The translations under genes were made by a program, and so were the position numbers. From an uncultured Planctomycetaceae bacterium (GTDB lineage: Bacteria > Planctomycetota > Phycisphaerae > SM23-33), in contig CAZFPT010000001.1 of assembly GCA_964521005.1 (NCBI GenBank), positions 3,122 through 67,121 of the forward strand: a stretch of 64,000 bases of DNA, read 5' to 3'. Shown here one piece after another: positions 5,842 to 46,755 of the stretch (positions are counted from its first letter, which is position 1; each line of letters opens with the position of its first letter). The notes under the pieces were generated by a model. The model was not told the origin of the DNA, did no database searches, and worked only from the letters and a program-made list of their open reading frames with translations.

Positions 5842-6252
5842 TTACGCGGTTGTTTCGGTGGAGCGTCGGCTTCGCCATGCGGCGAGGCCTTCGATCAGCG
5901 CGATCGCGAGGATCATTCCCGCGATGTTCGCCAGCCAATCGGTGATGGCGGCCGACCGGCCCACGAGGGGCTGGGTGAGTTCGTCGATCGCGCCGTAGAT
6001 GGGGATCACGTGCAGGACGGTCACCATGCGTCGGTATCGCCTCCAGCGGCGTGCGATCATCATCAGCACGAAGACCGCCGTCAGACCGAAGTAGCCCACC
6101 AGGTGAAGCAAGACGTCCGAGGGGCGGAACTCCATGTCCCTCAGCACGCGATTGATGGGGACGTGCGTGGCCGTGAATGCGGCGATCCAGACGACGGGGC
6201 AGAGTACGGTCATCACTCGGGCGGAGCGTGGCAGGGGGGCTGGTTCCATCAT
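5842..6252 (-). CDS. VanZ-like family membrane protein
   Basis: VanZ motif 'IDELTQPLVGRSAAITDWLANIAGMI' plus hydrophobic helices. Its ATG overlaps the ParA stop (ATGA). The N-terminal part of the track ORF is GC-rich read-through. Confidence 0.5.
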   Translation of the reverse strand: MMEPAPLPRSARVMTVLCPVVWIAAFTATHVPINRVLRDMEFRPSDVLLHLVGYFGLTAVFVLMMIARRWRRYRRMVTVLHVIPIYGAIDELTQPLVGRSAAITDWLANIAGMILAIALIEGLAAWRSRRSTETTA

Positions 6253-7253
6253 TCCGCCGAGTGGATGTCCACCGCCGAGGCGTCGGTCGAGCTGTATCGG
6301 CCGGCGGTGTCGAAATGGGCCGATGGGGCGGGACGCGATTCCGGCATGGCCGCCGGGTAGGTGGTTGGCGCGGTGCGTGCGTGCGTGACGGCCGACGCGG
6401 GTTCGGTGCCTGATTGGACGCCGAGCGGCTGGGAGGCCTCGTCGCGGCCGTCGCTCGATGGGGCCGAGAGGAACTCGTCGGCCAACGCGGCGTAATCGGC
6501 GGCCCCGTGGCAGGAGGGGTCGTACTGGAAGATCGTGGTCCCGTAGGATGGGCACTCGGCGAGCTTGACGTTGCGGCGAATGACGGTCTGGAAGACGCGG
6601 GCCGACGCCCACGGGACATCCTGGTCGCGGGACTGACGGATGAAGTCCTCCAGGTCGTCGCGGACTTCGCCCGCCAGCCGCGTGTTGGATTCATACATGC
6701 AGAGAATCACGCCCGAAACTCTCAGCGACGGATTGATGCGACGCTGCACGAGCGAGACGGTCTCCAGCAGCTTTCCGAGCCCCTGCAAAGCGAGGAAGTG
6801 GGGCTGAAGCGGGATGATCACCTCATCGGCGGCCGCCAGTGCGTTGAGCGTAAGAAGCCCGAGGCTGGGCGGACAGTCCATCAGGATGCAGGACGCATCG
6901 AGGTCGGCTTCGTCGATGCGATCACGCAGGATCTGCTCGCGTCCGACGGTGGCGGCGAGTTCGACTTCCGCCCCGGCCAGGTCAATCGACGACGGCAGCA
7001 CGGTCAGTCGGTCGGCCGGCGTGATGGCTGCCTTCCGCAGCGGCATGTCCGCCACCAGCACGTCGTAAAGGCTGGGTTGATCAACCGTGGGCTCGATCCC
7101 GAAGTGCAGCGTCAGGTGGGCCTGCGGATCCATGTCGATCAGGCAGACTTCCTGCCGGCGGTCGGCCAACGCCTGCCCGAGATTCGCCACGGTCGTGGTC
7201 TTGCCGACCCCGCCTTTCTGGTTGATCATCGCGATGGTTCTCACGAGGTGCAT
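6249..7253 (-). CDS. ParA/MinD-family ATPase (orphan) with ~90-aa low-complexity C-terminal extension
   Basis: Deviant Walker A 'MINQKGGVGKTTT', 'LIDMDPQ' and 'ILMDCPPSLG'. No parB is adjacent. Confidence 0.75.
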   Translation of the reverse strand: MHLVRTIAMINQKGGVGKTTTVANLGQALADRRQEVCLIDMDPQAHLTLHFGIEPTVDQPSLYDVLVADMPLRKAAITPADRLTVLPSSIDLAGAEVELAATVGREQILRDRIDEADLDASCILMDCPPSLGLLTLNALAAADEVIIPLQPHFLALQGLGKLLETVSLVQRRINPSLRVSGVILCMYESNTRLAGEVRDDLEDFIRQSRDQDVPWASARVFQTVIRRNVKLAECPSYGTTIFQYDPSCHGAADYAALADEFLSAPSSDGRDEASQPLGVQSGTEPASAVTHARTAPTTYPAAMPESRPAPSAHFDTAGRYSSTDASAVDIHSAE

Positions 7254-7319
7254 TATACGGCCTGCCCGCGTGACCACAACCCCCGCCCGGATCGCCGGAG
7301 GCGCGATCCCCATCGAGGC

Positions 7320-7356
7320 GCAAAGAACACGGCGGCGATCGGAATCGATCGCCGCC
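7320..7356 (-). terminator. hairpin terminator downstream of histone-like gene
   Basis: Perfect 11-bp stem ggcggcgatcg/cgatcgccgcc with loop gaat. On the minus strand it is followed by GUGUUCUUUGCG. Confidence 0.4.
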
Positions 7357-7409
7357 GTGGGTGTGACAGTCGATCGGCAGGGCAGCGCCCCGCCGAGGTC
7401 AGCCGAACA

Positions 7410-7877
7410 CTACTTCTTCTTGGACGACTTGCGGGTCGCTTTCTTGGCGGCCTTCTTCGTCGTCTTGCCAGCCTTCTTGGTGGACTTCTTCGCGCGCTTC
7501 TTGGTTTTCTTCGCCGCCTTCTTTGTGGCCTTCTTCGCGCGCTTCGTCGTCTTCTTCGCGCGCTTCGCGGTCTTCTTGGCAGCCTTCTTCGTTGTCTTGC
7601 GAGCCTTCTTGGCCGCCTTCTTGGTGGACTTCTTCGCTCGCTTGGCAGTCTTCTTCGCGCGCTTCGCGGTCTTCTTGGCCGCCTTCTTCGTGGTCTTCTT
7701 CGCGCGCTTCGCGGTCTTCTTGGTAGCCTTCTTCGTGGCCTTCTTCACGCGCTTTGCTGCCTTCTTGGCGCGACTGACCGACTTCTTCGCCGCCTTCTTC
7801 GTCGTCTTCTTCGCGCGCTTCGCGGTCTTCTTGGCCGCCTTCTTCGCCGTCTTCTTCTTTGCTGTCTTTTTGGCCAT
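7410..7877 (-). CDS. histone H1-like Lys/Ala-rich DNA-binding protein
   Basis: 155 aa made of KKAAKK/TAKRAKK repeats (MAKKTAKKKTAKKAAKK...). Start is M35 of the track ORF, with an AAAGAGG RBS. Confidence 0.7.
   Translation of the reverse strand: MAKKTAKKKTAKKAAKKTAKRAKKTTKKAAKKSVSRAKKAAKRVKKATKKATKKTAKRAKKTTKKAAKKTAKRAKKTAKRAKKSTKKAAKKARKTTKKAAKKTAKRAKKTTKRAKKATKKAAKKTKKRAKKSTKKAGKTTKKAAKKATRKSSKKK
7440..7860 (-). repeat. in-frame coding tandem repeats (degenerate units encoding AKKxxKK)
   Basis: The nucleotide sequence shows recurring 'gtcttcttcgcgcgcttcgcggtcttcttggc(c/a)gccttcttcg' units. Confidence 0.6.
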
Positions 7878-40302: not shown

Positions 40303-40761
40303 CCGCACCGCCCCCGGCCGGATGCGAATTTTATTGAGGCGGCCGTAGGGCTGGCGAACCGTCGGCTGCAGGCGAGGCAAACGCTTGCAGGCCAAGGCGC
40401 TGTGTGTGACAGGAGACACCCGGCAGGCAGAGCGGGAAGACGGTTTGCCGGCGGAATGTCTCGGCCCTGTTCGCGTCCCCGTTTCGCCGGCAATCCGCCT
40501 CGTTTGCCTCACTGGTCGGCAGGTATCGGAATGAAACGCTTTCTGAGCGGCGATGCTCCTGGCGAAACGCGCCCGACGGATCGCCAGCCCTACAAGCTTT
40601 GACCCCATGACCGCGCCGTCGCCGGCCCGGCTGGGTGCTTGCGAAACCGCTCGATCCCTGCCATGATGGCGTTCTGAAGGATCCGCATGCGGGCCGACCC
40701 GAATTTCCGCCGGGCGCGTTGAAGAAACGGCGCCCCGCGCGCGTCGGCACCGTTGGTACCC

Positions 40762-43700
40762 ATGACTTACAGGAGACTGATCGTGACGCATTTCTCTCGC
40801 TGGATCGCACCGTTTGTTTTGCTGGGCGTCGCTGCGCTGGTTGTGGCCCCCGCCGCCGGTAGACCTGTTCCCGAGAAGCTGCAGAAGACCTCGCTTGCCA
40901 AGGTGCTGGATACGTCGTCCAGTATCGAGGACTTCATGCTTACCCTCTCCGGCGGCGTCTTCACCGAGAAGGTCAATCGCACCACGGGCAAGGGACAGCG
41001 GGTGACCAAGGACCTGAGGCTGTATTTCAAGCGTCAGGACGGCGAGTGGCTGGCGAATGTCTCGGGCGTGGCTTCGGGGTTCAACCAGGCCGCCACGAGA
41101 GGCAAGATTCTCCCCGACAAGTCGGACAAGAACACCGTGGCGATGATGCTGAACATCGGCTCGGATCGCTGGGTCGAGGGCGACGCGTCCGCCCCGTACA
41201 CCATCGAGATCCGCATCGCCGACGGCAAGGTGGAGGGGACCTACAAGGGCACCTTCCAGGGCCATGCCGTCGAGGGCGAGGTCTCCGGCGTGGTGCGAAC
41301 CGGCGGCTGGGTAAACTGCACGGAGAAAGACGGCGTGATCCACGTCGAGCTGAACCTGGGTACCAAGCGGGTCAACTGGAACAACGCGCGATGGGCCGTC
41401 AACGACCTCGGCCTGCCGGTGAACATGAGCGAGCACGACGGGCTGGTCTTGACCGTCGAGACCGACAAGCCCCGCCACGACGCGTGGGTGGACGTCGGGC
41501 TCATGGAGAACGACGGCTCGTGGTACTACCTCCGCGACGCAGCCCCGCTGACGCAGAAATCGCAGACGGTCGTGATCGACTTTGACGACTTCCGACACGC
41601 CGAGTGGATATTCAACGCTGCCGGGACGGGTCCCGGGGCGGACGGGAACTTCGACGAGGACTTCCACCTCGATCGCAAGAACATCGCGCGGATTGCCATC
41701 GGCACGGTGAACGCCAACGGCGTGGGAACCGTCAAGTTCCGCGTGACCGATATCTCGCTGGGCAAGTGGAAGACGACGTCGCCGGATCCCGACAAGGTCA
41801 CCGTCAGCGGACAGACGTACACCGTCAACGGCACCGGACAGGTCCCCGACGGGATCTTCGGGTTCCACACCGCCGGCGGAAGCGACGGCCAGGTGTCCGA
41901 CCTTCGCGTGGGCAGCCTTCGGCCGTTGCGGGCGATGGCCGGTGGCGGGGCGTTTGTCGCTCCCCCCAACCCCAAGGCCGACGTGTTCCTGCGCGTCTCC
42001 ACGAACTACGACCGTCGCCAGCAGGTCCCGCCGGCCGACTGGGGCGCCGATTGGGCCCGCAAATGCAAGTCGGTCGGGCAGAAGCTCGGCCAGGCCGCCA
42101 AACCCTACGGAGACCAGGTGGCGGTGGAGTGGTGGAACGAGCCTTACCTCGACCTCGGCCGAATGCTGCCCGGCAGCGTTGCCCGCAACGCCGACAAGGA
42201 CCAGGACCGCACCCCGGGCAAGCCCGTGTACATGCACGGGAGGAAGCTCGAATCGATGGTCTGGACGAAGGTGGACGGCAAGGTCGTACCGCGAGATCCG
42301 AGCCGGTTCACCTACTGGTCGGGCCGGCAGTTGGGGATCTTCTACACCGACTCGTTTGAGATCGTCGCCGCCGAAGCCAAGAAGATCGCCCCCGAGATGC
42401 ACATGGTCGGCGGGTTCGGGTTCCGCTGGCAGGAAGACGACTGGGCCGCCTGGAACCTGCTCTACAAGCCGATGATCGACCAGACCATCGAGAATCTCGA
42501 CGGGGTCTGTGAGCACCACTACCAGGGACACACCGACGCGATGGCCGCCTCCTATGAGGTGCTCGTCGCCTACGGGATGGCCAAGCACGGCAAGCGACTG
42601 ATCGCCTACAACACCGAAACCAACGACCTCTGGGACGCACCGGCCCGGGGGCGGTCTGCCGCCACCACGCAATTCGGCGGGAAGTTCAAGTCCCGCAAGC
42701 GACTGATCTACAACGTCCGGGACATTCTTTACTGTGCCATCGAAACGCCCGACAAGATCCGGGCCCGGGCGATCCATGCCCTCTGGGGTGGCGCGAAGGA
42801 CAACCGCGTTAAGATCGGCCAGGAGATCCGCGACCGGAAAGGCCGGGTCAAGCTCACCGTCACCGGCACCAAGTGGGCCGACTCGGCGACGCTCGGCGAT
42901 CAGAACATCACCGCCGAGAAGGGCAAAACGCTGCTGATTCTGGATGTCAAGGCCTGGTCGAATCGCGGCGGAGCCGTCGGGCTGGGCGAAGTCACCGCGA
43001 AGATCGGAAGCGCGACCACCAAGGCCCCCGCGACGGCAGGCAGTTTGCCCGGAAAGCTCAAGAAGAATCAGACCGTCGAGGCGCAGATCGCCTTCGTGTT
43101 GCCTGCCGCAGCCAAGAGCGACGGCATCGTTACCTGGAACCCGGGACGCGGCATGCGGAACATCGTCCACGTCCACGGGCCGTTCGGCGAGGCCGACATC
43201 GCGCCGCACCGCCGGGCGGGCATCGACGAGGGCGAGTACGTCGCCCTGCAGTTCCTCAAGGAGCTTCGCGGAAGTCTGGTTGCCGCCGAGTCCAGCGATG
43301 AGATGATCTGGGTGGCGTCGAGCATCGACCCGCGAAGCAAGGCGTTGGTGGCCGTGGTGTACAACGACGACTACAAGACGCGTTCGCCGGCCGTCCAGCT
43401 CAAGGCCCCGGCGGGGACGTCCTTCGTGAGTGGCGCGGTGGAGTACCTCGTGCATGGCGACGACGGCGATGTGGGCATCCGCACCGAGAAGATCCAGCGC
43501 GTCGGGGACAAGGCCTGTGCGGTGGATCTCAAGCTGCCGGCCGCCCATGCCGCCAAGATCGTGTTGCGGCTGAAGGGGTCGCTGCCCGACAGCGCCGATC
43601 TCAAACGCACGCAGACATTCTGCAAGGCCCCGAGCAAAGACGTCGACCCCATCCTGCATGAGATGGCCCCCGGCGAGTCGCTCTCGCTGCCGATCGCGCT

Positions 43701-43965
43701 TTCGGGCGATGCTCACCAGAGCAGGCGGGCGTGGATTCGCCTGGTGGTCGAACGCGTGGGCCCCGGCGAGGGCACGGTGGAAATCGGCGGCAGGACGTTC
43801 GCCATTCCCCGCGCTCACACGCCGTGCAATGGCCCGTACATCCGAAACATCGAGATCGACCCGGACCTGCTCAAGGGCGTCAAGGAACTGACGTTCAAAG
43901 CCGCCGACGCCACCAACGGCAACGGGTTCCTGCTGGGGATGGCCTCGATCGTGACCGAGAAATAG
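40762..43965 (+). CDS. large secreted protein, possible clan GH-A glycoside hydrolase core
   Basis: Signal peptide (...FVLLGVAALVVAPAAG) and an acid/base-like 'WWNEPYLDLG' motif. An alternative GTG start at 40783 has an AGGAG RBS. The track ORF uses TTG at 40753. Confidence 0.45.
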   Translation: MTYRRLIVTHFSRWIAPFVLLGVAALVVAPAAGRPVPEKLQKTSLAKVLDTSSSIEDFMLTLSGGVFTEKVNRTTGKGQRVTKDLRLYFKRQDGEWLANVSGVASGFNQAATRGKILPDKSDKNTVAMMLNIGSDRWVEGDASAPYTIEIRIADGKVEGTYKGTFQGHAVEGEVSGVVRTGGWVNCTEKDGVIHVELNLGTKRVNWNNARWAVNDLGLPVNMSEHDGLVLTVETDKPRHDAWVDVGLMENDGSWYYLRDAAPLTQKSQTVVIDFDDFRHAEWIFNAAGTGPGADGNFDEDFHLDRKNIARIAIGTVNANGVGTVKFRVTDISLGKWKTTSPDPDKVTVSGQTYTVNGTGQVPDGIFGFHTAGGSDGQVSDLRVGSLRPLRAMAGGGAFVAPPNPKADVFLRVSTNYDRRQQVPPADWGADWARKCKSVGQKLGQAAKPYGDQVAVEWWNEPYLDLGRMLPGSVARNADKDQDRTPGKPVYMHGRKLESMVWTKVDGKVVPRDPSRFTYWSGRQLGIFYTDSFEIVAAEAKKIAPEMHMVGGFGFRWQEDDWAAWNLLYKPMIDQTIENLDGVCEHHYQGHTDAMAASYEVLVAYGMAKHGKRLIAYNTETNDLWDAPARGRSAATTQFGGKFKSRKRLIYNVRDILYCAIETPDKIRARAIHALWGGAKDNRVKIGQEIRDRKGRVKLTVTGTKWADSATLGDQNITAEKGKTLLILDVKAWSNRGGAVGLGEVTAKIGSATTKAPATAGSLPGKLKKNQTVEAQIAFVLPAAAKSDGIVTWNPGRGMRNIVHVHGPFGEADIAPHRRAGIDEGEYVALQFLKELRGSLVAAESSDEMIWVASSIDPRSKALVAVVYNDDYKTRSPAVQLKAPAGTSFVSGAVEYLVHGDDGDVGIRTEKIQRVGDKACAVDLKLPAAHAAKIVLRLKGSLPDSADLKRTQTFCKAPSKDVDPILHEMAPGESLSLPIALSGDAHQSRRAWIRLVVERVGPGEGTVEIGGRTFAIPRAHTPCNGPYIRNIEIDPDLLKGVKELTFKAADATNGNGFLLGMASIVTEK

Positions 43966-44136
43966 TCCGAGCTTGCATCGGCAGCCGGAGCAAACGCTCC
44001 GATTGCCAGGGAAAGCAGCGGGTCGGCCTGCGGGTTGGCCCGCTGTTTTTGTCGTTGTGGCTGCGGGGTCGCATGGGCTTCCAGCCGATGTTCCCTCTTC
44101 ACGCCAACTCCGTGACTCCTTTTCACCTTCGGTGAA

Positions 44137-44431
44137 CCTGCGTGTCGGCAGACACGGCCTGGAAGGCCGTGCGACGGTAAGCGTCGCATGGGCTTCGGAG
44201 CCCATGGTCTGTTCTGTTTTCGTCTTCGTCTTCGGCGATGCGCCCGCAACAAGTTGCGAGCCCTACAGCTGGCCCTGCAATTCTGTTTCGCCTTCGGCAA
44301 CCCTGCGTGTCGGCAGACACGGCCTGGAAGGCCGTGCGACGGTAAGCGTCGCATGGGCTTCGGAGCCCATGGTCTGTTCTGTTTTCGTCTTCGTCTTCGG
44401 CGATGCGCCCGCAACAAGTTGCGAGCCCTAC
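44137..44431 (+). repeat. 165-bp-period tandem duplication of a 130-bp hairpin-rich element (two full copies; 34-bp partial third copy at 44682-44715)
   Basis: Copies 44137-44266 and 44302-44431 are near-identical. Each contains the hairpins gtgtc-ggca-gacac, ggcc-tggaa-ggcc, cgacg-gtaag-cgtcg, catgggct-tcgg-agcccatg and cgcaac-aa-gttgcg. Confidence 0.75.
44187..44235 (+). terminator. intrinsic terminator-like hairpin + U-tract inside repeat copy 1 (second identical copy at 44352-44400)
   Basis: 8-bp stem CATGGGCT/AGCCCATG with a UCGG loop, then GTCTGTTCTGTTTTCGTCTTCGTCTTCGG. Confidence 0.45.
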
Positions 44432-44441
44432 GGTTGACCGA

Positions 44442-44509
44442 CCCCAACCAAGGGCGCCCGGCGTTGTGCAGCGACCCCCCAACCAAGGGTGCCCGGCGTT
44501 GTGCAGCGA
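44442..44509 (+). repeat. 35-bp-period tandem repeat (CCCCAACCAAGGGYGCCCGGCGTTGTGCAGCGA x2)
   Basis: Two copies at 44442-44474 and 44477-44509. Nearby is a 21-bp direct repeat CCGGCACAGCCCCGGGCACCC at 44617 and 44718. Confidence 0.6.
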
Positions 44510-44806
44510 GCCCAAGCGAGCTGAGCAACCCGGTTGGTCCGGATCGCGCTGCAGGTAGTGGTCTGACATCGCGACAGCCGGGTTGCTCCGTTCCTCCCTC
44601 GCTGCGCTCGGTCCGACCGGCACAGCCCCGGGCACCCGAAGTTTCGTTAGGTTCCAAGGAGTGATCGTCCCGCATCCACCTGCGATGCGCCCGCAACAAG
44701 TTGCGAGCCCTACGGCACCGGCACAGCCCCGGGCACCCTTGGTGGAGGCAGGACGCCCGCTGAGGCCGAAGCATACCGCCGCTTGTCGGGCCGCCCCGCC
44801 GGTCGC

Positions 44807-45757
44807 CTACTTCTTTCGGCCGCGTTTGGGAGCCTTCTTGGTCGCCGATTTCTTGCGGGTCTTCTTGGAGGCGGGCTTCTCTTCGCCCTTGGCGGCAGAG
44901 GTCTTCTTCTTGACCTTCTTCCTGCGGACCTTCTTGGCCGCCTTCTTGGCCTTCTTGGCCTTCTTGGCGACCTTTCGGCTGGCTTTGCGTTTGGGCTTGG
45001 GGGCTTTGTCCCGGTGGACGGCGTCGTACGCCCGGGCCGGTCGCCCCGCCAGTGTTCCCTCGCCGGTGGAGTCGTGGTCGGCCAATGCTGCCGGGGGCGG
45101 CGGGCCCATCTCGGGTGGCGACGCTTCGACGATCACCCGCACGGTCTCCTCCAGGCTGTCGGTGAGCGTGAAAAGGTCCATGTCCTCGGCGTCGATCTTG
45201 GCATGGCCGCTGTCGAGCATCGTCTCGCGGACCCAGTCGATCAGCCCGGACCAGTAACTCCGCCCGATGAGCACCACCGGGAAACGCATGCTCTTGCCGG
45301 TCTGGATCAGTGTCATCGAGTTGAAAAACTCGTGCAGCGTTCCGAACCCGCCCGGGAAGCACACAAACGCGTTGGCGTACTTCACGAACATCACCAGCCG
45401 GGCGAAGAAGTAGCGGAAGTCCAGCCGTACGTCCGCCCAGGGATTGGCGTTCTGCTCCATCGGCAGGTTGATGTTCAGCCCCACCGAGAGGCCGTTGGCG
45501 TCGTGGGCGCCGCGGTTGGCCGCCTCCATGATGCCCGGCCCGCCGCCGGTGATGATGCCGTACCCCTCGTTGCACAGCATGCTGGCGAGTTTGCGTGCCC
45601 GCCGGTAGTCCGAGGCGCTGCGGGGCGTGCGGGCGGACCCGAAAATACTGACGGCCGGTCCGACGCGGCTCATGGTCTCGAAGCCCTCGACGAACTCGCT
45701 CATGATACGGAAAACGCGCCAGGGATCCTCGTTCACAAAGTGAGGCAGATTCGACAT
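44807..45757 (-). CDS. LOG-family (TIGR00730; cytokinin riboside 5'-monophosphate phosphoribohydrolase / 'lysine decarboxylase-like') protein fused to C-terminal histone H1-like Lys-rich tail
   Basis: LOG motifs 'IFGSAR', 'GGGPGIMEA' and 'PGGFGTLHEFF'. The C-terminal ~70 aa are 'KRKASRKVAKKAKKAKKAAKKVRRKKVKKK...'. Start is MSNLPHF (M18), with a GAGAGGA RBS. Confidence 0.7.
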   Translation of the reverse strand: MSNLPHFVNEDPWRVFRIMSEFVEGFETMSRVGPAVSIFGSARTPRSASDYRRARKLASMLCNEGYGIITGGGPGIMEAANRGAHDANGLSVGLNINLPMEQNANPWADVRLDFRYFFARLVMFVKYANAFVCFPGGFGTLHEFFNSMTLIQTGKSMRFPVVLIGRSYWSGLIDWVRETMLDSGHAKIDAEDMDLFTLTDSLEETVRVIVEASPPEMGPPPPAALADHDSTGEGTLAGRPARAYDAVHRDKAPKPKRKASRKVAKKAKKAKKAAKKVRRKKVKKKTSAAKGEEKPASKKTRKKSATKKAPKRGRKK

Positions 45758-45942
45758 GTCGTCCTCTCGTTGTTGTGGATGATAATGTACGGAAACGGCG
45801 ATCTTCACAGACTATATCGGCAAATCGCTCGCGGGGCGACACGCTTTTGCCCTCGCGCGGACGAATCGCCGCCGCCCGTCGCGTCGCAGCGTTGACAAAC
45901 GGCCTGTTATCGTGCCTAATCTTCACCATGCGAGAGAACACA

Positions 45943-46755
45943 ATGACATGCTGGCTTCGCTGGATGTGCCTGGCCGCGACGGCTGCCACCGTCGGCTGTG
46001 GCGGCGAATACAAGATGACCGTCCCCGATGCCGTCGCCCCCGCCGGCGAGGAGGCGCCCATCGTCGTACGCCTCCAGCGGAACGACTTTCTCATTCTCGA
46101 CATGGCCGTCGAGCAGGTCCCCATCGGTCTGCAGGTGGACGACGCCCAGCAACGCTACGCCTACACCGACAAGTTCGGCTACGCGGGCACGCTCGTACCC
46201 GTCCCCGATGAGCCGGGCATGTACCCGCTGGAACTCTACCACCAGGACTCCGACGAGGGCGACGAGGTCCGCGGCACCGGACGCGTCTACGTCTGGGATC
46301 CGAATCGCCCCGTCGTCGCGGTGGACCTCGACTGTCTGCCGCTGGCCGGCGATGGCAGGGCGGCCGAGGCCCTTACCCGCTGGGCGAGCCAGGCCCATAT
46401 CGCCTATTTCACGCGCGAGCCGGTCTCCGAGCATGCAGGCCTTCATCGCGTGCTCGCCTCGGGCGGCTACCCCGACGGGCCGATCCTGCTGTGGAAACGC
46501 CAGCGATGGCACATCACGCGGGGCACGTGGAACATCCCGAAGATCGTGGTCGAGTCCCGCCTGGTCAGCCAGCTCAGCGAACTGCGAAAGACATTCCCAG
46601 CCCTGAAGACCGGCCTGGCGGGCTGCTCGCTGAGTGCCCAGACCTTCCAGCAGGCCGGCATGCGAACGGTGGTCGTTGGCGAAACGGACGTGGAGGGCGA
46701 GGTTCGCCGGGTGCCCGACTGGTCGGGCGTCTCGGAGATCGACCCGGCCCGTTAG
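45943..46755 (+). CDS. hypothetical lipoprotein
   Basis: Lipobox 'AATVGCGG' after a hydrophobic leader. No recognisable family. Confidence 0.4.
   Translation: MTCWLRWMCLAATAATVGCGGEYKMTVPDAVAPAGEEAPIVVRLQRNDFLILDMAVEQVPIGLQVDDAQQRYAYTDKFGYAGTLVPVPDEPGMYPLELYHQDSDEGDEVRGTGRVYVWDPNRPVVAVDLDCLPLAGDGRAAEALTRWASQAHIAYFTREPVSEHAGLHRVLASGGYPDGPILLWKRQRWHITRGTWNIPKIVVESRLVSQLSELRKTFPALKTGLAGCSLSAQTFQQAGMRTVVVGETDVEGEVRRVPDWSGVSEIDPAR

Follow-up and report, generated by a model that had tools for sequence, protein, structure and literature searches.

INTRODUCTION

Type-II LOG enzymes are hexamers of which an extra N-terminal helix is a feature, and in CgLOGII, the Cg1261 protein of Corynebacterium glutamicum, the K156A variant is inactive and the D177A variant nearly inactive (PMC5379747). 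Lysine-rich low-complexity tails have been described on other bacterial proteins: those of mycobacterial Ku and Hlp, Deinococcus HU and actinobacterial topoisomerase I bind DNA nonspecifically and bridge it, and tails of this PAKKA type have been proposed to have arisen repeatedly (PMC3553676, PMC5714199). Lys-rich low-complexity regions of prokaryotes are statistically linked to DNA and RNA binding, and metabolic enzymes are generally poor in them (PMC6821194). Here we describe a gene that joins a LOG core to such a tail. It lies on the minus strand of a 64-kb stretch (64,000 nucleotides, hereafter the window) of contig CAZFPT010000001.1 from an uncultured Planctomycetaceae bacterium, and encodes in a single open reading frame (ORF) without internal stop a LOG core, a linker and a basic tail, 316 residues in all. 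Proteins of like architecture are already present in public databases, where they stand unremarked as 'TIGR00730 family'; no literature linking LOG proteins with Lys-rich tails was found.

RESULTS

A polycationic C terminus in frame with the LOG core

The lysines of the protein were found to be concentrated at its C-terminal end, with 4 in the first 244 residues versus 29 in the last 66 (binomial P ~4e-34), and residues 245 to 316 hold 37 Lys and Arg versus 4 Asp and Glu for a net charge of about +33. The composition of the 66-residue tail (K 44%, A 17%, P 6%) agrees with its description as histone H1-like in an earlier note on this DNA. No Pfam match was obtained for residues 220 to 316. In an AlphaFold2 (AF2) monomer model, built on a 71-sequence alignment of the clade, residues 260 to 288 form a single helix with a predicted local distance difference test score (pLDDT) of ~80 and the remainder of the tail is disordered; because the tail is devoid of hydrophobic residues, it is not an amphipathic membrane anchor.

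That the core runs into the tail without a stop or frameshift, as the earlier note had claimed, was upheld by three lines of evidence: (i) the in-frame fusion of LOG core and Lys tail was found in six independent metagenome assemblies from different samples, namely L001 (Logan SRR15425354), L003 (SRR12689534), L005 (ENA ERZ922772) and L002, L004 and L006 from three JGI metagenomes, with L006 a fragment; (ii) the tail indels detected by DNA alignment of the 3′ thirds of these genes (9, 3, 18, 33, and 12 nt) are all multiples of three; and (iii) the GC content at third codon positions (GC3) is 0.86 in the tail frame compared with 0.89 in the core and therefore marks the Lys frame as the coding frame. 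The other two frames across the tail are likewise stop-free. Identity to the window's protein was 99% for L001, 85% for L005, and 92% over the aligned part for L002, L003, and L004; a close relative was absent from the GTDB species genomes, among which the best match was 67% identical, so that the placement of the organism goes no further than Planctomycetota, probably Phycisphaerae.

The same set of sequences points to how the tail changes in length. Relative to the window, the 99%-identical protein of L001 was found to be short of exactly one 9-nt GCCAAGAAG unit, and a one-unit difference at a perfect 9-nt repeat is indicative of replication slippage and makes this repeat a slippage hotspot. 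The ratio of nonsynonymous to synonymous substitution rates (dN/dS), as determined pairwise by the Nei-Gojobori method, was 0.06 to 0.08 in the core, 0.06 to 0.20 in the linker and 0.33 to 0.44 in the tail, the last of these (~0.4) being derived from uncertain alignments of low-complexity sequence and to be read loosely. Despite this fast change in sequence, 23 to 29 Lys are retained in every member of the window's group. Fast change combined with a steady Lys count is the usual behavior of a disordered segment selected for composition, which is what these sequences suggest the tail to be.

Length and origin of the tail among relatives

The best 120 homologues are mostly 245 to 265 residues long, and those with named sources are from Phycisphaerae and other Planctomycetota. 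In the 111 homologues that have the TGEGTxxGxP-type (EGT) motif described below, the segment following this motif was 19 residues long and carried a net charge of +5 (medians), with a charge of at least +3 in 79%. The usual ends in the clade are short and basic, reading ...PSRTYRRKNGIK or ...PRRRRRSK. Longer Lys-rich ends (10 to 18 Lys) occur in P0089/P0096, P0059/P0091, P0088/P0111 and at the locus L009 of a Phycisphaerae metagenome-assembled genome, the longest are those of the window's group (23 to 29 Lys), and tails of intermediate length are found at L009, L017, and L018. Post-motif length is graded among relatives, from 8 to 89 residues. A neighbor-joining tree of the cores scatters the long-tail groups over at least three or four positions; the tree is poorly resolved, which makes the count of independent expansions approximate. 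A search of related genomes for Lys-tailed LOGs, which the earlier note had recommended, accordingly recovered them in several sublineages, with the window's tail among the longest. Its view that the tail is unusual holds for the wider LOG family, where a Lys-rich tail was present in 0 of the 150 best 50%-identity representatives, but not for the clade, in which a basic end is the norm and long Lys tails have emerged repeatedly.

Outside the window's group, the closest relative is P0005 on L020, which is 78% identical and has the same gene neighborhood. P0005 ends about 25 residues past the motif at ...APEGKQRQKNYD, which aligns with ...APKPKRKASRK of the window's protein. Downstream of the P0005 gene are a terminator-like hairpin and a convergent DUF58 gene, with no histone-like gene; a fusion with a downstream histone gene was rejected on this basis, and the arrangement as two separate genes that the earlier note had envisaged for related genomes is not seen at this sister locus. 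The simplest history, judging from the sequences compared, would be a short basic end in the clade that slippage lengthened in several lineages, to the greatest extent in that of the window.

Lys-rich tails were also found on unrelated proteins. A scan of all retrieved loci, with a threshold of 10 or more Lys per 30-residue stretch, detected C-terminal Lys tails spanning 30 to 40 residues on a B12-binding-domain protein (L017 16172-16951, minus strand, ending ...KMKKPASKAKAKSKAKAVK) and on an unannotated 220-residue protein (L019 13140-13802, minus strand, ending ...GRKKKAAPKKKKTTAPRKAKP). Basic low-complexity tails thus seem to be a recurrent feature, a lineage-wide tendency, of proteins in related planctomycete genomes. 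Within the window, only two Lys-rich stretches were found: the LOG tail and a stand-alone Lys/Ala/Thr-rich gene of like composition at 7410-7877 on the minus strand, present as the earlier note had reported. No Pfam match was obtained for this histone-like gene (7413-7877). A ParA/Soj-like ATPase gene (6249-7313), whose product carries a KGGVGKTT Walker motif, follows it immediately downstream on the same strand, and the two (6249-7877) may form a pair.

Core, base-binding pocket and linker motif

The assignment of the core to the LOG/TIGR00730 family was borne out by residues 35 to 209, which scored 124.1 bits against TIGR00730 (cut-off 96.35), by residues 77 to 207, which matched PF03641 (E 8.8e-28, 97.6 bits, cut-off 27), and by the PGGFGTLHE motif. 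In the AF2 model the pLDDT of the core was mostly >85, and the top Foldseek matches were the type-II LOG structures 5wq3, 5zi9, and 1wek, with a target-normalized template modeling (TM) score of 0.91 and a root-mean-square deviation of 1.5 to 1.7 Å. Identity of the core to type-II LOGs was 50 to 53% over ~200 residues (E 1e-63 to 1e-71). The protein is probably a type-II LOG-family nucleotide phosphoribohydrolase and, by analogy, a hexamer.

When compared with CgLOGII, the active site was found to combine a retained catalytic pair with an altered adenine pocket. R120 and E143 align with R155 and E178 of CgLOGII, and with the catalytic Arg and Glu intact, cleavage of the N-glycosidic bond of a nucleoside 5′-monophosphate would be expected from the alignment. 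In the pocket, Lys156 is replaced by Leu121 (45395-45397) and Asp177 by His142 (45332-45334). R120 and H142 are invariant in the 71-sequence clade alignment and L121 is present in at least 90%, compared with Lys and Asp in 4 of 4 solved type-II LOGs. In the wider family, the Lys/Asp pair was found in at least 113 of the 150 best representatives and Leu/His in 7, and a further 22 have the Asp with the Lys position unresolved. The adenine pocket of type-II LOGs is formed by an Asp that precedes the catalytic Glu and a Lys that follows the catalytic Arg, and in this protein the two positions are occupied by His and Leu. Since both replacements are clade-wide, specificity for cytokinin or AMP is not to be assumed; a Leu/His change that is fixed here and uncommon across the wider family suggests another substrate base, and the preferred base is probably other than the adenine or cytokinin of characterized LOGs. 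The core can therefore be called complete, as it had been by the earlier note, with respect to catalysis (R120, E143) but not with respect to the adenine pocket (Leu121, His142), and the cytokinin-like metabolism proposed there is doubtful with two adenine-binding residues of type-II LOGs replaced.

Two features that the earlier note had missed are these base-pocket substitutions and the 35-residue linker with its conserved motif. The motif consensus is [ST]-[GA]-E-G-T-x-x-G-x-P, in which E233, G234, T235, and G238 are invariant across the 71-sequence alignment. It was detected in 111 of 118 close homologues (~94%), about 15 to 20 residues past the core, and also in some relatives of the Lys/Asp type. 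In the AF2 monomer model the motif was docked nowhere (pLDDT <50).

Gene features and neighborhood

The features of the gene are listed in Table 1. The start at MSN is common to the ORF and its close homologues P0001, P0002, and P0004. A longer GTG start at 45808 was rejected, as the homologues begin at MSN and a Shine-Dalgarno-like site precedes the ATG at 45757; the opposite-strand ORFs 44783-45895 (+) and 44583-45257 (+) were rejected as shadow ORFs of a 65% GC genome, the family match being on the minus-strand frame. No structured RNA was detected in or beside the LOG gene (Rfam, E up to 1, 43800-46200).

Table 1. Sequence features of the LOG gene and its product, in coordinates of the window
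Feature	Position	Strand	Basis or remark
Complete gene, 316-residue type-II LOG-like protein with polycationic C-terminal tail	44807..45757	-	ATG 45757, TAG 44807-44809
Shine-Dalgarno-like GAGAGG, 5 nt upstream of the ATG	45763..45768	-	Direct reading of the sequence
LOG core, residues 1-215, Rossmann-like fold	45113..45757	-	TIGR00730, PF03641, AF2, Foldseek
N-terminal extra helix DPWRVFRIMSEFVEGFETM, residues 11-29	45671..45727	-	Aligns to CgLOGII residues 46-64; helix 12-29 in AF2 model
R120 (catalytic Arg, retained) and L121 (in place of adenine-binding Lys156 of CgLOGII)	45395..45400	-	
PGGFGTLHE nucleotide-binding motif, residues 135-143	45329..45355	-	E143 catalytic Glu; H142 in place of Asp
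Pro-rich disordered linker, 35 residues, 216-250	45008..45112	-	AF2 pLDDT <50 for most of 220-257
Linear motif TGEGTLAGRP, residues 231-240, in linker	45038..45067	-	Conserved across clade
Polycationic tail, 66 residues, 251-316	44810..45007	-	29 K, 8 R, 11 A, 4 P; 0 L/I/F/W/M/Y
Perfect 9-nt tandem repeat GCCAAGAAG x 3.2, AKK units, in tail	44940..44968	-	Tandem Repeats Finder, 100% matches

The LOG gene is monocistronic and lies between a divergent lipoprotein-like gene and a convergent gene for a 1070-residue protein. The former (45934-46755, plus strand) encodes a protein of ~270 residues with a signal peptide ending GCGG and no Pfam match; it is kept beside the LOG gene across lineages at 39 to 48% identity (L017 9002-9829, L018 6809-7708, L007, L009, and L020 4308-5114), where it usually adjoins a thioredoxin/DsbH-like gene and a lipopolysaccharide (LPS)-core cluster (heptosyltransferase, Kdo kinase, GT4, and PlsY). 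As these envelope-gene neighbors accompany short and long tails alike, the synteny is uninformative on the tail. The 1070-residue product of the downstream gene (40753-43965, plus strand) is predicted to be secreted and has no Pfam match; the gene is syntenic in close relatives, including a 1045-residue version on L002. The 840-bp intergenic region between this gene and the LOG gene (43966-44806) is packed with repeats, including a 165-nt tandem duplication that is 95% identical (44121-44439), a 35-nt tandem repeat (44442-44511) and several inverted repeats. A 35-nt element is present in three copies (44235, 44400, and 44682), occurs nowhere else in the window and has no Rfam match.

DISCUSSION

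Overall, we favor, with a probability of roughly 0.55, the explanation that this gene encodes a type-II LOG with a polycationic tail that was grown by slippage and binds polyanions electrostatically. According to this explanation, the tail would not have been acquired as a domain but would be an overgrown version of the short basic C-terminal end which nearly every member of the clade has after the TGEGTxxGxP motif, lengthened through replication slippage of AAG-rich 9-nt units, translated, and retained for its composition rather than its exact sequence. Its likeliest activity would be the nonspecific electrostatic binding of polyanions, above all nucleic acid, such that the enzyme may be kept by charge at the nucleoid or on RNA; a hexamer, if formed, would bind DNA or RNA multivalently through its six tails. 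The step from polyanions to nucleic acid specifically, which is suggested by analogy with the tails of Ku, HU, and TopA, is more tentative and in our estimate falls a little below even odds. The nucleoid targeting or moonlighting chromatin role put forward in the earlier note was overstated, being read from composition only, and nucleoid binding is plausible by the same kind of analogy; to us the tail looks like a slippage-grown lineage habit and not a dedicated chromatin module. A further-reaching idea, which we regard as a long shot, is that the LOGs with the Leu/His pocket, EGT motif, and basic end are a distinct subfamily working on or next to nucleic acid, with the window's hexamer and its six H1-like tails doubling as a multivalent nucleoid- or RNA-associated protein; such enzymes could, for example, clear a non-adenine and perhaps modified or damaged nucleoside monophosphate (NMP) where RNA or DNA is turned over.

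Several points weigh against the favored explanation. Composition alone cannot tell DNA from RNA, polyphosphate, or acidic lipid; all of the documented tail precedents already bind DNA through their cores; and why a soluble metabolic enzyme would need tethering to nucleic acid is not obvious. In addition, the sister lineage of P0005/L020 does without the long tail, and the Lys tails on unrelated proteins of L017 and L019 weaken the case for a LOG-specific need and favor a general tendency. The loosely determined dN/dS of the tail and the approximate count of its expansions belong on the same side.

The alternative that survives best, which we nonetheless consider unlikely, is that the tail is a near-neutral low-complexity expansion, with Lys runs made by slippage in an AAG-rich 3′ end being tolerated on a disordered and solvent-exposed C terminus in which they have no specific role. 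Consistent with this, the tail changes at 4 to 6 times the rate of the core, near-identical sequences differ in tail length at the perfect repeat, the closest relative that lacks the tail shares the core and the neighborhood, and like tails occur on unrelated proteins. However, the Lys frame has been kept through at least five independent indels even though the other two frames are open, dN/dS is <1 with Lys held at 23 to 29 across the group, and a net positive end is found in ~80% of the 111 homologues with long tails recurring in several branches, all of which argue against simple tolerance.

It is considerably less probable that the tail has a target other than nucleic acid, such as polyphosphate granules or the acidic inner face of the membrane, or that it sets the level of the enzyme as a polyanion-dependent signal for degradation or solubility. 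A charge of about +33 would bind any polyanion, and the gene is located beside envelope and LPS-core genes in several lineages. The abundance of LOG is under proteolytic control in mycobacteria, and polyphosphate promotes the degradation of Lys-rich proteins by Lon in E. coli. Against such targets, the tail is without hydrophobic or aromatic residues for membrane insertion, and the synteny with envelope genes is equally present where tails are short.

Capture of the tail from a histone-like gene (e.g., 7410-7877) through recombination or fusion, which would make it a transplanted nucleoid-protein module, appears very improbable. The two sequences are alike in composition and share a 21-nt exact match, CCAAGAAGGCGGCCAAGAAGG, a length reached in 0 of 200 codon shuffles of the tail (maximum 20). 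The excess over this null is however one base, coming from a shared AAG/GCC codon repeat; the post-motif lengths of relatives are graded (8 to 89) instead of following a presence/absence pattern; the sister locus has its hairpin and convergent DUF58 gene with no histone-like gene; and neither the tail nor the stand-alone gene has a Pfam match. Finally, a frameshift from sequencing or assembly, or two genes misread as one, can be set aside given the same architecture in six independent assemblies, the frame-keeping indels, and a GC3 that matches the frame.

If the tail binds nucleic acid, this protein would clearly exemplify how a metabolic enzyme acting on small molecules can be brought to the nucleoid or to RNA by a tail, and would indicate that bacterial localization signals can be made from low-complexity sequence, starting with a few basic residues and slippage; if the tail is neutral, it would be a well-documented example of tolerated low-complexity growth. 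The tail is a real and mildly interesting feature, which a specialist would regard as a low-complexity embellishment unless binding were demonstrated. Arguably, better leads than the tail are the Leu/His pocket and the invariant EGT motif. Both mark several hundred or more proteins annotated only as 'TIGR00730 family', whose substrate probably differs from that assumed by reference to characterized LOGs.

With the type-IIa LOGs, CgLOGII (Cg1261; 5wq3), the Streptomyces coelicolor enzyme (5zi9) and Thermus thermophilus TT1465 (1wek), the protein shares the common fold, the N-terminal helix, the PGGxGTxxE motif, and the catalytic Arg and Glu. The solved type-II LOGs are without its ~100-residue C-terminal extension of linker, EGT motif, and Lys tail, and the adenine-binding Lys156 and Asp177 of the type-IIa enzymes are replaced in this protein, as across its clade, by Leu121 and His142. 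PpnN/YgdH, another member of the LOG superfamily with a similar fold, has a broad NMP range that offers a possible model for non-adenine specificity; the match to it is weak (34 bits compared with a cut-off of 450), and its extra N- and C-terminal domains and alarmone regulation are not present in the window's protein.

The tail resembles the C-terminal domain of histone H1 and the bacterial H1-like proteins in composition (K ~40%, A ~20%, and some P, S, and T) and in predicted disorder combined with helical propensity. Unlike H1, it has no globular winged-helix domain, no S/TPKK motifs, and no match to curated H1, Hc1, or HU-type Pfam families, and homology to H1-like sequence cannot be established for a low-complexity tail. 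A further parallel in form is with the PAKKA-type tails of mycobacterial Hlp/HupB and Ku, Deinococcus HU, and actinobacterial topoisomerase I, which are likewise terminal, disordered, rich in Lys, Ala, and Pro, fast-evolving, and variable in length among close relatives. The LOG tail differs from these in having no regular PAKKA array, only a short repeat of AKK x 3, and in its partner: PAKKA-type tails modulate DNA-binding cores, whereas here the core is a small-molecule nucleotide hydrolase.

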